Shown here: piece by piece, positions 57,500-64,000 of the stretch
How positions within the stretch are numbered: position 1 is the stretch's first letter
Layout: every line of letters starts with the position of its first letter
NCBI GenBank assembly: GCA_965113315.1
Contig: OZ220373.1
Source of the DNA: Podarcis vaucheri
Lineage: Eukaryota
DNA length: 64,000 nt
Strand: one strand, 5' to 3'
Notes under the pieces: model-generated
The model's input: the letters and a program-made list of their open reading frames with translations, nothing else
The model's database searches: none
Told to the model about the DNA's origin: nothing
Program-made: the position numbers and the translations under genes

Positions 57500-58810
57500 A
57501 TGCCCCGGTTTTTGCGCGCGCGCGCACCGTGACCAACAGAAAAATCGATTCCCCGACCCACCCCAGAAAATAACCCCAGACGACCCCGCTCGCCCCTCAC
57601 CTGAAATCGCTGTAGGGGTGGATGATCCAGAAGCCTGCAGTTTTAACCCTTTCCTGCTCCTTCTCCACCGCCTTCTGGCTGCCGAACATGCGGAGGGAGA
57701 ATTTGTTGACCCCGGGCTGCAGCATGGAGGTGAACTGGCGCTGCATGAAGCCGTATTGGCGCCCGGCAGCGTCGGCATCGTCGAAGCCCACCGCCGGCTC
57801 CTCTCCGCCGCCGCCGCCGCTTCCGCCGTCCACTTTGAAACACACCGAGTTGCCATGGTCCTTGAGGCTGCCGCCGCCGCCGCCGGCTCCCGGGCTGCCC
57901 AGCGCCTTGTCCGCCGCCGCCTTGCCCTGGAAGCAGGCGTTGGCGCTGGGGCTGCCGTCGTCGCGGCTGCCGGGCGACGAGCCGGGCTTGCTGCCCTCCA
58001 TGCCTCTGCCCAGCGAGCGGCCGGGAGGCGGAGGAAGGGAGGTGGCGCGGGAGAGCGAGCGAGGGAGGCAGCGCCGGCCAGGCGAGCCGGCTCCGTCTTG
58101 CAGCGGCGGCGGCGGCTGCTGCGACTGCTGCCCGCCCTTCAGCGGCTCCTCAGCCCCTTCTGGCGCGCCTCGCGTGGCAAGGGGACCGACGGGAGAGGGG
58201 AGGAGGGCTGAGCCAGAGGCAGCGGGCGGGCGGGCGGCAGGCTCCCTTCGAGCGCCCTCTGCCGACCGCAGCGGCGCGCTTGGGCCCGCTTCCCTTCGCT
58301 TGACATTGAGCGACCCGGACGAGCCCGGGAGGAGGGAAGGAGGGAGGGAGGATGGAGCGCGCCGTTAGGCAGCTGGCCTGAGCCAGCGTTTCCTCCTCAC
58401 ATCGCCGCTACCCAAAGAAAGGGACCGGGGCTCCCAAGCTGGCTTCGCTTGCACAGATTTGTCTTCCAAGATCGCTCCTCGGTCCCGGTGCCTTTAGCAC
58501 GAAGGACGGCTTCCGAGGTTGCACAGGCATGGAGATGATACCCAGCTGGGGGTTTCGCCTCGCAGACGGGGCGTCCTCCCGGTGGCGTTTGTAGCAACCG
58601 GGCGCCCTCCCCCCGGAACGAGCTGTTCATTGAGCATTTCACTCCCCCGGTTTGTCCGCAGCGAGGGACGTTAGACGACGTTGGCGCGCTGATGAGCACT
58701 CGCCTGCTTGGGATGAGGTTAGATGAGGTCGCATCAAGCGTCGCGCGCACACAGCCAGTTCCCAGCAAGTGTTCCTGTCCCCTATCGCAAAAGCCGGATC
58801 TTTCCGGGGA
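57500..58810. promoter_or_regulatory. CpG island covering the HCN1 promoter, 5'UTR and exon 1; GC boxes
   Basis: Very high GC and CpG density against an AT-rich, CpG-poor background. GGGCGG repeats at ~58224-58237 and a short CGG run at ~58103-58115. Confidence 0.9.
57601..58001 (-). CDS. HCN1: HCN1 coding exon 1 (N-terminus, HCN domain up to ...HPYSDF-R)
   Basis: Translation MEGSKPGSS...[13 protein letters not shown]...[54 protein letters not shown] matches the vertebrate HCN1 N-terminus. Strong Kozak context GGC-ATG-G. Donor AG|GTGAG at 57601/57600, phase 2 (401 coding nt). Confidence 0.97.
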
Positions 58811-60861: not shown

Positions 60862-61990
60862 GTGTCATTACTTAGTGCAAAGAATGGCTTAAAGTACTGG
60901 GATGAGCTGCATTTCTAAGCCACAGTGGTCCACTGGATAAGGCTGGAGGTCCATATCATAATCTTAGCCTACTTACTACAAGTCTGGCCATGTTAACTGG
61001 CTGTAACTGAGGACCTGCTCATCACTCCTTATCTCTAAAATGGAAAGAAAGGGGTTGCAGGATACTAAGAGCAGTGCACTTCACAAAGGCTCATTACTGG
61101 TCTATTTATTTATTTATTGACTGATTTACTTCACAATATATACCTGCCCTTCAGTAGAAAGATTTCCAGGTCTAGTGTGATTGATTAATGAGATGGGTTT
61201 AAAAAATAATAAATAATAAAGCAAGACCATTTGGGTCCCTTAGAATTAAATGACACCCAAACACTTAATCTAGGTCATATTTACATTACAAATGTGGCAG
61301 TGCTGTTTTGCTATATTCCCAGTGAGTGCATTGCAATTGCCATTAGTTGTTGGTCAATTGGCTGGCTATTCAGATGATTTATGTCATCCACACAGTCCCT
61401 GTAGATATATATTTTAAAAGCTCAATCTTCCAGTTTGAAAGCCAGAAATAAAGTTCTAACAAGCTGCAGAGCGTGACCAAGGCAACAGTCCAAAGCTATG
61501 TGGAATTATGAACAACAACTTTTGACTTTCTTGTTAAGTATTGTCTTGGGAAGATGCTCTCCTTACCATAGAACATGGGAACCTGAGAAGCGTCTTGCTG
61601 AATCAAGCCAAAGGCATCTTCTTGTCACACTGGCCAACCAGATGCCTATGGGAAGCCCTAAAGCAGGATGCAAGCACAGAGGCGCAAGGATACTTTAGAC
61701 AGAAATGCATGTACGAAAGAGGAAGGAATTTTATGGATTGCTCATTTCCCAGCAGAGCATTTCCAAGGTCATCCAGATCTTCTCTCCCGACTTCTAATTT
61801 TCAGAATAAAGTTGGTGATGTACAATAACACTAGACAGAGAAATCGGGTGAAAAGAGTTTACTTTTTCTGCCAACCACCCTTGTCTCTTCTTCACACCAA
61901 CACTCACAGATTCCCTGCCTTGTCAAGAGCTGAAGCCAGTGTCAGATGCAAGGGATGTGAACAAGTTGTCACAACTTTTTCTTTGCTTAA

Positions 61991-62443
61991 TGTCAGGGAA
62001 CTGACATCGGAGGAAAGGGAAGTGGTAGGGCTCCCAGAGACTGGGAGAGAGTCAACAGCTAAAGCAGGGACCAGTAGGGGGAGCGCGGGGTCTCTGGAGG
62101 AGGATCTCAGTAATGCTGAGAGAGACGCAGCAGCCCAGGCAGGAAGCAGAGGGGGAGAGAAAGGGGTGAGAGACACTTCGAGCGAAAATAGCGGGGAGGT
62201 GTCAGAAGCAACTGCAGGGAGACCTATGCTTCGCCGGAAGCTGTCACGTCGTGAGTCCAGGAGACGCGTTTCCGTTAAGGAACTTCTTTGCTGGAAGCGC
62301 TTCCGCAGACAGCCACTGTCGGACTCTACAAGTGACTAGAGCAGACATGTCTGAGGAGCTCTGTCACACACAGAGGTTTGTGGGGTCGCACAAACTCTGA
62401 AGGGGCACTATTTTAAGCACAAGCAGCTAATCATCCCCTGACA
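61991..62443 (+). mobile_element. 5' LTR (453 bp) of the Gypsy element
   Basis: TG...CA ends with an 8-bp terminal inverted repeat TGTCAGGG...CCCTGACA. The primer-binding site begins 2 nt downstream and the gag ATG 45 nt downstream. Confidence 0.85.
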
Positions 62444-62445
62444 GC

Positions 62446-62456
62446 AGTCCGACAGT
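62446..62456 (+). promoter_or_regulatory. Self-priming primer-binding site
   Basis: AGTCCGACAGT is the exact reverse complement of ACTGTCGGACT at 62315-62325 inside the LTR. No TGG-type tRNA PBS is present. Confidence 0.8.
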
Positions 62457-62488
62457 CTCTGTACGCTGCCTGTGCAGGAGAAGGCATC

Positions 62489-63499
62489 ATGAGCGACCCA
62501 GCAGGAGCCGGAGCCGCAGGGGGTGGAGCTGGTCCAAGCTTGGAAGACAGATACCGAGCATTGGAGGTCCAACTTGCACGGCAGACGGCGAGGCTCGAGG
62601 AGAGGAGGGCTCAAGATGCAGACAAGAAGGGGAGAACCACTCAGTTCCCCAGAAAGGTACCAGGATTAGTGCAGAAGTTTGGGGGGGACCCCAAGGATTA
62701 CCATGCCTTTAGGACTGAAATGCAATATGCCCTGAATGTGCAGTTTGATGAGTTCCCTGATGAGGAATCCCGAGTTGCTTTCGTAATTGGGCATCTTGAG
62801 AAGGGGGCGCGGGACTGGGTTCGACCCCTGATGGCAACGCACAACGATATCCTGAAGGACGCTATGAAATTCTTTCGTGCAATGGATATCATGTTCTCCA
62901 GCGATATTGAGGAGGGGGGAGTGCGCAGACAGCTAATGGCTTGCAAGCAGGGAAGCAGATCTGTCCGTGAGTACTGGACTGAATTTACCATGCTGATTCA
63001 CAGATTGGGGTGGGATTTATCGGCAGCACCCATTCAGATGCTATTTGAAGAAGGTCTTTCTTCAGCTGTGAAAGACGAGCTGGCCAGGAGCCCCAGGGCG
63101 GTGTCTATGGATCAGCTGACCAAATCTGCGCTGACCATTGGAACGCGCCAGGAGGCTAGAGCCTTGGAGAGGCGGGAAGGGAGAGGGGAACGTTGGAAGG
63201 AGTTACGCATTCCAGACATTCCTGAGCCAGCTTTCCCGCCGGCAGAGCCGATGGAAATCGGAACAGCCCGCGCGCGCGCAGTTTCAAAGCCCAGTGAGGG
63301 GGCGAAGAAGGAGGGAAAGGGACCCCGGAAATGCTATCTCTGCCAACAGCCAGGCCACTTTGCCAGAGTCTGCCCCCAGAGGAAGGAATGGCAAGGGATG
63401 GTGGGAACTGTTGAGGGGGAAGAGCAGGGAGAAACGGAGCAGGTAAAAGCCAACGCCTGGTTGCCAGCAGGGCACTGCAGCCAGGCCAAAGAGCAGTGA
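62489..63499 (+). CDS. gag: Gypsy Gag (336 aa; capsid/retrotransposon-gag domain, zinc knuckle)
   Basis: N-terminal coiled coil; FGGDP...RVAFVIGHLEKGARDW; KQGSRSVREYWTEF (MHR-like); EPMEIG; CYLCQQPGHFARVC (CX2CX4HX4C). No internal stops. Confidence 0.93.
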   Translation: MSDPAGAGAAGGGAGPSLEDRYRALEVQLARQTARLEERRAQDADKKGRTTQFPRKVPGLVQKFGGDPKDYHAFRTEMQYALNVQFDEFPDEESRVAFVIGHLEKGARDWVRPLMATHNDILKDAMKFFRAMDIMFSSDIEEGGVRRQLMACKQGSRSVREYWTEFTMLIHRLGWDLSAAPIQMLFEEGLSSAVKDELARSPRAVSMDQLTKSALTIGTRQEARALERREGRGERWKELRIPDIPEPAFPPAEPMEIGTARARAVSKPSEGAKKEGKGPRKCYLCQQPGHFARVCPQRKEWQGMVGTVEGEEQGETEQVKANAWLPAGHCSQAKEQ

Positions 63500-64000
63500 A
63501 AGTGCCCCTTTCCCAAGTGCCAGTGCCAGAAGCTCCTCGACCTGCTCTAGTGATTGAAGTGTCGCTAGAGTTGCAAAATGGACACCCCCTAAAAATAAAG
63601 GCGCTGTTGGACTCAGGCAGCTCCTGCAATTTCATGAGCAAGGAGTTTGCGGCTGAACACCAGATACAGACTATCCCCTTAAGCAACCCCCTGCAGGTGA
63701 CCACGATCGATGGCAGAGAACTGTTGGGAGGAGGCGTCAGCTTGCAGACCATCCCAATGATAATGAGGGTGGCAAGGCACACAGAACTGATAGCGTTTAA
63801 TGTGGCCACCTTGGGAGGCGCTCCCATTATTTTGGGAATGAGCTGGCTAGCCCTACATGATCCGCTGGTGGGCTGGCATCAAAGAGTGGTTTCCTTCGGT
63901 TCCGCACATTGCTTAGAACACTGCAGGGGGGAAAAGGGGTCAGCAGGGGCCCAAGCCACCCTAGCAGGGACGGAAGTGATGGAGAAGGGGAAGGTGCCAT
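63415..64000 (+). CDS. pol: Gypsy Pol N-terminus (aspartic protease), -1 frame relative to gag, runs off the window
   Basis: Frame open from 63415 (after TGA at 63412-63414) to the window end. Contains KALLDSGSSCNFMS (D-S-G active site, ~63598-63639) and PIILGMSWLALHDP. Confidence 0.9.
63442..63507 (+). promoter_or_regulatory. Candidate -1 ribosomal frameshift signal (slippery heptamer plus H-type pseudoknot)
   Basis: G_GTA_AAA in the gag frame, a 6-nt spacer, stem 1 at 63455-63464/63477-63486 and stem 2 at 63470-63476/63501-63507, located at the gag/pol overlap. Confidence 0.75.

Follow-up and report, generated by a model that had tools for sequence, protein, structure and literature searches.

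A candidate gag-pol -1 frameshift signal at N_GUA_AAA, with a free first base and a downstream H-type pseudoknot, in a young Ty3/gypsy retrotransposon of Podarcis vaucheri

The last 2 kb of a 64,000-nt stretch of Podarcis vaucheri DNA (contig OZ220373.1 of assembly GCA_965113315.1; hereafter the window, with coordinates counted from its first letter and on the + strand unless stated otherwise) carry the 5' part of a young, chromodomain-bearing, chromovirus-type Ty3/gypsy retrotransposon with long terminal repeats (LTRs); the remainder of the element lies in the adjoining genomic stretch L031. The gag and pol genes of this element are joined in a -1 overlap, and pol is probably reached by a pseudoknot-stimulated -1 frameshift at N_GUA_AAA, where tRNA-Lys would re-pair fully after the shift and tRNA-Val poorly or not at all. 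Throughout the family GUA_AAA is fixed, and the base that nominally opens the heptamer is free to vary. Pseudoknot-driven gag-pol -1 frameshifting is ordinary for such elements; the unusual part is the shift site, eukaryotic -1 sites being defined and searched for as X_XXY_YYZ plus a short list of exceptions.

The gag gene (62489..63499, 336 codons, ATG at 62489) encodes a Retrotrans_gag/Ty3-capsid-like domain and one CCHC zinc knuckle, and its frame runs from stop to stop over 62417-63499. The pol frame (63415..64000, continuing past the window) lies at -1 relative to gag, opens with an aspartyl protease and is without a start of its own, there being no ATG before the protease active site. 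Separate initiation of pol was rejected because its first Met falls after that active site. The two frames thus overlap at 63415-63499. Within the overlap, G_GTA_AAA is found in the gag frame at 63442-63448. It consists of a free first base (63442..63442), which is G in the window and A or U in other lineages, and of the conserved hexamer GUA_AAA (Val-Lys; 63443..63448), the predicted shift site, in which A_AAA (63445-63448) permits full -1 re-pairing of tRNA-Lys. A 6-nt spacer, GCCAAC (63449..63454), separates the hexamer from the pseudoknot. GTA_AAA is the sole codon pair of the overlap with its A-site codon in a four-base homopolymer and a pseudoknot 5-9 nt away. Two alternative shift sites in the overlap, G_GGG_GAA and G_GGA_GAA, were rejected on the grounds that they offer no A-site re-pairing, are too distant from the pseudoknot and vary among clades. 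Transcriptional slippage was also rejected, a run of four A residues being too short.

Stem 1 of the H-type pseudoknot pairs 63455..63464 with 63477..63486 (10 bp, including one U-G) and stem 2 pairs 63470..63476 with 63501..63507 (7 bp in the window copy, of which six pairs are conserved). Loop 1 (63465..63469) is 5 nt long here and 8 nt in most other lineages, a length change of one codon, and loop 3 (63487..63500) contains the gag stop, TGA at 63497-63499. The fold was defined as an H-type structure with a stem 1 of at least 10 bp, a stem 2 of at least 6 bp and at most one G-U pair, starting 4-9 nt past the heptamer. One in 20,000 dinucleotide shuffles of the segment 63449-63530 gave such a fold, and the 5.57-kb element has no second one; the pseudoknot exceeds chance. 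As isolated hairpins the two stems have energies of -17.7 kcal/mol (stem 1) and -10.7 kcal/mol (stem 2), and the nested minimum free energy fold, computed by a program that cannot draw pseudoknots, is unremarkable (z = -0.42). Paired cells amount to 95% across 19 aligned copies, and pair 7 of stem 1 is paired in every one of them, as U-G (10 copies), C-G (8 copies) or U-A (1 copy).

The preliminary description of this DNA, drawn from the letters alone, had placed the heptamer, spacer, both stems, gag stop and -1 overlap correctly. It had also given stem 2 as 7 bp; seven pairs are present in the window copy, but the seventh (63476-63501) is not conserved, being unpaired in 14 of the 19 aligned copies, and 239 copies have a base other than T at 63476. 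The conserved core of stem 2 is thus 6 bp, the seventh pair being present in some lineages only. As a separate observation, the gag homolog P0004 (79% identical) has a W to C and an S to R change that hit both partners of stem 1 pair 6; these changes would fit a swapped G-C pair, and DNA carrying it is absent among 29 parsed loci.

Variation at the shift site was counted with sequence patterns that require an intact neighbouring motif. The exact 27-mer with GGTAAAA is present in 1,362 copies. With the T changed to any other base, this 27-mer matched a single copy, which reads GGC; none reads GGA or GGG. A shorter pattern returned two copies with another base at the T, one of them G_GGA_AAA (L085), in which both frames are broken. 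A base other than G precedes GTAAAA in 299 further copies; among the 100 of these that were listed it is A in 80, T in 20 and C in none. One copy is altered at the third base of the Val codon, where a change is silent in gag, and two copies at the second base of that codon; at the third base of Lys no copy is altered. When 30 loci were picked by protein similarity alone, 29 could be parsed, 27 with GTA_AAA and 28 with A as the first base. Copies with G, A and U as first base fall into clades that interleave on a tree built from 74 of the 95 extracted segments; the tree was midpoint-rooted, carries no support values and was not used for the order of events. V-K-A-N is retained in four gag homologs (79-93% identical) that come from other data sets, and a 1,217-nt contig of another organism matches the window solely at 63436-63507.

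Against the canonical form of a -1 signal, A-site re-pairing on YYYZ (AAA or UUU followed by A, C or U) is available at A_AAA, with one variant copy at its first base and none at its last. Conserved P-site re-pairing on XXX is absent: the GGU of the window is a listed exception, but AGU or UGU stands in its place across 299 copies of the family. The 3' structure is an H-type fold of 10 + 6/7 bp behind a 6-nt spacer, where 5-9 nt is expected. The site has the form of a hexamer/tetramer site, in that the A-site codon alone lies in a Z_ZZN tetramer and the base preceding the hexamer is unconstrained. By its sequence the signal would work like those of PEG10 and of the sister family described below but without a conserved XXX, and it fits the sequence definition of a hexamer/tetramer site, a class known mainly from bacteria.

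The shift is assigned to GUA_AAA by positional homology: in related families of this genome G_GGA_AAC occupies the corresponding place, with the pseudoknot in the same position. In the protein library the outgroup gags closest to this family (P0006, P0007, P0010 and P0092; 36-46% identical) have Q-G-N where the family has Q-V-K, and in three of the four Q-G-N is followed by an A-W-L motif, as in the window family. Two outgroup gags were used as queries against the genome, giving two sets of 30 loci. From the first search 28 of 30 loci were parsed, with G_GGA_AAC in 26, A_GGA_AAC in one and G_GGG_AAC in one, and the first G of the heptamer is kept across CAG, CCG and TCG codons. A sister family, its gag ~60-64% identical to that of the window, accounts for most of these loci and shares the 6-nt spacer and both stems. 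The second search recovered a third family (gag ~31-37% identical), which has G_GGA_AAC at 30 of 30 loci and the same stem 1, with a mostly different stem 2 of 8 bp. Stems were located locus by locus; a three-family alignment left stem 2 out of register. At seven G_GGA_AAC loci no perfect fold was found. Of the 58 loci parsed from these canonical families, 57 have G as the first base, and the codon after the shift site is variable. G_GGA_AAC is likewise present at the gag-pol junction of a fourth family, which is more distant.

Two further observations were made on gypsy families of this genome. In a distant G_GGA_AAC family, 13 of 30 fetched loci (L087-L091, L100-L104 and L113-L115; contig G000:C41) share an extra A just past the heptamer, which fuses gag and pol into one frame that is open for 910-1,564 codons; these loci may have arisen by local duplication of a single copy. 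The same contig is also where older copies from several gypsy families cluster strongly, a clustering that would fit a non-recombining, possibly sex-limited chromosome.

The lineages with A or U as first base look functional. Five U copies and five copies of one A clade (A1) were fetched whole; in each set gag is open in 5 of 5 copies and a full-length pol is open in 4 of 5, and the LTR pairs are identical (100%) in eight of the ten copies. Pol lengths of the two lineages are similar to that of the window element. Selection was assessed by counting clade-specific single-base codon changes over the protease and early reverse transcriptase (RT), for which the neutral expectation is one synonymous to 2.5 non-synonymous changes. 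In the four A clades the counts (synonymous/non-synonymous) were 13/4, 21/3, 11/0 and 27/4, a total of 72/11, each with P < 1e-4. This purifying selection on A-clade pol implies that Pol has been made in cis on A_GUA_AAA lineages, the timing of the base change along the branches not being fixed by the counts. Freedom of the first base among lineages whose genes are open indicates that the site can probably do without re-pairing in the P site.

In the favoured mechanism, the pseudoknot 6 nt downstream of the hexamer would make a minority of ribosomes slip back by one base. Such a ribosome would be held up while Val occupies the P site and Lys the A site, change frame by -1 as translocation proceeds and read on in the pol frame once Val-Lys is decoded, the shift being carried by tRNA-Lys alone. 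Under the pairing rules, tRNA-Val shifted back by one base retains a single Watson-Crick pair where the triplet is GGU and loses all of them where it is AGU or UGU, to which an IAC anticodon would add one wobble pair; shifted tRNA-Lys retains three pairs on AAA, and tRNA-Asn on A_AAC retains two. The replacement of GGA by GUA and of AAC by AAA would therefore have weakened P-site re-pairing and perfected A-site re-pairing together, with the canonical G_GGA_AAC presumably the older state. Perfect re-pairing of tRNA-Lys on A_AAA could let the site dispense with re-pairing in the P site. The passages cited from PMC5009743 give Z_ZZN as the minimal -1 site and an NNA_AAG hexamer as the site of IS1222, and report that E. 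coli tRNA-Lys, not tRNA-Asn, slips singly on wheat-germ ribosomes and that wobble-prone upstream tRNAs, I:A included, raise shifting. It is possible that the upstream GUA is read by I:A wobble with tRNA-Val(IAC); more speculatively, GUA may be kept since an inosine-34 tRNA-Val would, through its I:A wobble, free the third A, as proposed for bacterial CGA_AAG. In its strongest form, which is put forward tentatively and with somewhat less than even confidence, the proposal is that of a natural, essential eukaryotic -1 frameshift on one tRNA: a lineage would have swapped G_GGA_AAC for N_GUA_AAA before an unchanged pseudoknot, trading P-site re-pairing for perfect re-pairing of tRNA-Lys, perhaps with the aid of an I:A wobble on Val.

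Several observations weigh against the favoured mechanism. The largest lineage has G, which permits one P-site pair, and the first base may therefore matter quantitatively. GU is fixed for reasons that may include a protein-level constraint on Val. The single-slip result cited above was obtained with a bacterial tRNA-Lys. Evidence from selection is uneven among lineages: the signal is weak in the G lineage (4 synonymous, 2 non-synonymous) and absent in the U lineage (1 synonymous, 2 non-synonymous), so that U copies could be mobilised in trans. In a further A clade (A2; L216-L220) pol is broken in 5 of 5 copies, at different codons (492-979), with LTR pairs 99.5-99.8% identical. Covariation of the stems in the 19 aligned copies is not above that of shuffles (286 of 500 were as high), and no pair is changed on both sides relative to the commonest pair. 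Finally, the contrast among six clades between the hexamer, spacer, stems and loop 3 (5 of 60 positions vary) and the flanks (42 of 63) is inflated, by double coding in the overlap and because four of the six clades were fetched with motif-anchored patterns, part of the invariance being by construction.

The alternative that survives best, though it is judged unlikely, is ordinary tandem -1 slippage with a tolerated mismatch, in which both tRNAs slip, tRNA-Val gains a foothold from the first G, and alleles with A or U shift more weakly and persist on low Pol or on Pol supplied in trans. GGU is among the XXX exceptions listed in the cited parts of PMC3542737 and PMC6735917, and G_GUA_AAC is given as the predicted site of Circulifer tenellus virus 1 (CiTV1; PMC3832450), but AGU and UGU are outside the exceptions in the list cited (GGU, GUU, GUC and GAA as well as GGA and UCC; PMC6735917). 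An inosine-34 tRNA-Val would get two of three pairs on GGU, whereas AGU and UGU give one wobble pair at most. The G lineage is by far the largest, with at least 1,362 copies against 299. Against this alternative, A is the first base in the lineages that have diverged most (28 of 29), in which pol is under strong purifying selection; clades with G, A and U are intermingled on the tree; and the canonical families keep G at this position in 57 of their 58 parsed loci. The preliminary description had appealed to the tolerance of GGU in cardiovirus G_GUU_UUU; that tolerance is confirmed in the part of PMC3542737 cited, but it explains the site incompletely, since the first G gives way to A or U in 299 copies and the conserved unit is GUA_AAA.

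A later slip, in which tRNA-Lys alone in the P site shifts back on A_AAA with the A site over GCC empty, would give the same product. A_AAA is equally open to a P-site tRNA, which would explain the indifference to the first base, but stem 1 would then begin only 3 nt past the A-site codon, outside the usual 5-9 nt (as given in the cited part of PMC3542737). The 6-nt spacer is moreover of the same length as in the canonical families, where the codon following the shift site varies, and a slip of this kind is regarded as improbable.

Production of pol by splicing from a 5' donor at CAG/GTAAAA (63440-63448), the pseudoknot serving some other purpose such as packaging, is less probable still. The sequence is donor-like and its GT is fixed in the family, but the base preceding GT is A or T in 299 copies, and related families have GG in place of GT and yet the same pseudoknot. 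Before the protease active site the only AG acceptors that would join to the pol frame are at 63480 (within stem 1, giving a 38-nt intron), 63570 and 63600, and all three lack a pyrimidine tract; the pyrimidine-rich acceptors at 63517 and 63550 stay in the gag frame. No joint at 63443 was found in assembled contigs, which are uninformative on splicing. The preliminary description had offered, as a possibility, a one-base variant of G_GGA_AAA that lowers Pol output. As a variant peculiar to the window copy this is refuted, and a degraded or one-base site with little or no frameshifting is scarcely credible: the site is one base from that canonical heptamer and one G_GGA_AAA copy exists in the genome (L085), but in the 27-mer count GGT stands at 1,362 copies, GGC at one and GGA and GGG at none, the sole GGA copy has broken frames, and the window element has identical LTRs and an open pol.

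The whole element is 5.57 kb long and is flanked by a 5-bp target-site duplication, CTTAA (61986..61990, with the second copy after the 3' LTR at L031 6563-6567). The 5' LTR (61991..62443; 453 nt, TG...CA) is 100% identical to the 3' LTR (L031 6110-6562). At the primer-binding-site position, 11 nt (62446..62456) are complementary to an LTR-internal segment (62315-62325), and priming is likely to be self-priming of the Tf1/sushi type rather than tRNA priming. Pol, uninterrupted over 1,347 codons, encodes protease, reverse transcriptase (RT), RNase H, integrase, SH3 and a chromodomain (PF00385, E = 2.4e-11), which lies at the integrase C-terminus; env is absent. The LTRs, the target-site duplication and gag plus pol in the order protease, RT, RNase H, integrase (PR-RT-RH-IN) are those of a chromovirus. 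With the Tf1/sushi chromoviruses the element shares the order PR-RT-RNase H-IN-SH3-chromodomain, the lack of env, TG...CA LTRs, a 5-bp duplication and a self-complementary priming site, features by which it would be placed in that group. A 291-nt junction query gave 979 candidates, and 40 of 40 scored matches are 100% identical; 30 fetched copies are 99.0-99.8% identical to the window copy across ~3.1 kb. The family is very young.

The pol frame enters the 3' LTR for ~115 codons (L031 6110-6458) before its stop, past an acidic stretch behind the chromodomain. Neither AATAAA nor ATTAAA is present in the LTR of the element. The element lies ~3.6 kb upstream of, and in opposite orientation to, the first coding exon (Ion_trans_N) of an HCN-type channel gene (57597-58364, - strand), which is in a G+C-rich stretch and points to a vertebrate host. 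No tRNA gene was found in the window, and an Rfam scan of 61900-64000 returned nothing reaching a family threshold and one chance match (E = 0.59). The viral contigs searched held no relative of the element's gag, and a search for short gag-tail proteins gave no candidate.

Among known systems the closest is PEG10/Edr, which is alike in its Ty3/gypsy derivation, a gag-pol junction after the CCHC knuckle, pol at -1 and a compact downstream H-type pseudoknot. The PEG10 heptamer is GGGAAAC in the cited portion of PMC13622457, and the proposal in the preliminary description of a -1 frameshift element related to the PEG10-type signal is supported. The window family differs in having GUA rather than GGA in the P site, AAA rather than AAC in the A site and a first base that is free (G, A or U), and PEG10/Edr is a domesticated gene whereas the window site is in a mobile, multi-copy element. 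Bacterial NNA_AAG sites (G_CGA_AAG of IS1222 and A_CGA_AAG of Bacillus cdd) are alike in that only tRNA-Lys can re-pair, in an upstream codon that ends in A and is readable by an inosine-34 tRNA, and in a preceding base that differs between cases (all as described in the cited passages of PMC5009743); the window site differs in its eukaryotic ribosomes, AAA in place of AAG and an H-type pseudoknot as stimulator. The resemblance appears to be one of mechanism only, with no homology. Viral sites with an imperfect XXX include cardiovirus G_GUU_UUU, G_UUA of equine arteritis virus and the predicted G_GUA_AAC of CiTV1 (cited parts of PMC3542737 and PMC3832450). These are alike in G_GU at the P-site positions, and CiTV1 has the same G_GUA (PMC3832450, in the part cited); cardiovirus differs in that shifting is stimulated by a viral protein. 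The listed exceptions keep at least one P-site Watson-Crick pair, whereas no such pair is left on A_GUA or U_GUA, whichever of the two anticodons tRNA-Val has.

A literature search returned no description of A_GUA_AAA or U_GUA_AAA, for which subscription journals and repeat databases may hold a precedent. G_GUA_AAA was not found together with 'frameshift', and among the matches listed none was, by title or the start of the abstract, on a retrotransposon shift site; two of the papers matched deal with +1 frameshifting. PMC11011659 contains nothing on slippery sites.

The families of this one genome provide a natural controlled comparison, in which the same pseudoknot stands behind G_GGA_AAC, G_GUA_AAA, A_GUA_AAA and U_GUA_AAA. 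These natural cassettes make two questions testable: how far re-pairing in the P site is needed, and whether Lys rather than Asn in the A site is what decides. If the reading of N_GUA_AAA given here is true, predictors would undercount eukaryotic sites composed of NNA_AAA and a pseudoknot, and the retrotransposon family would hold a eukaryotic counterpart of the bacterial NNA_AAG sites, missed by X_XXY_YYZ scanners.

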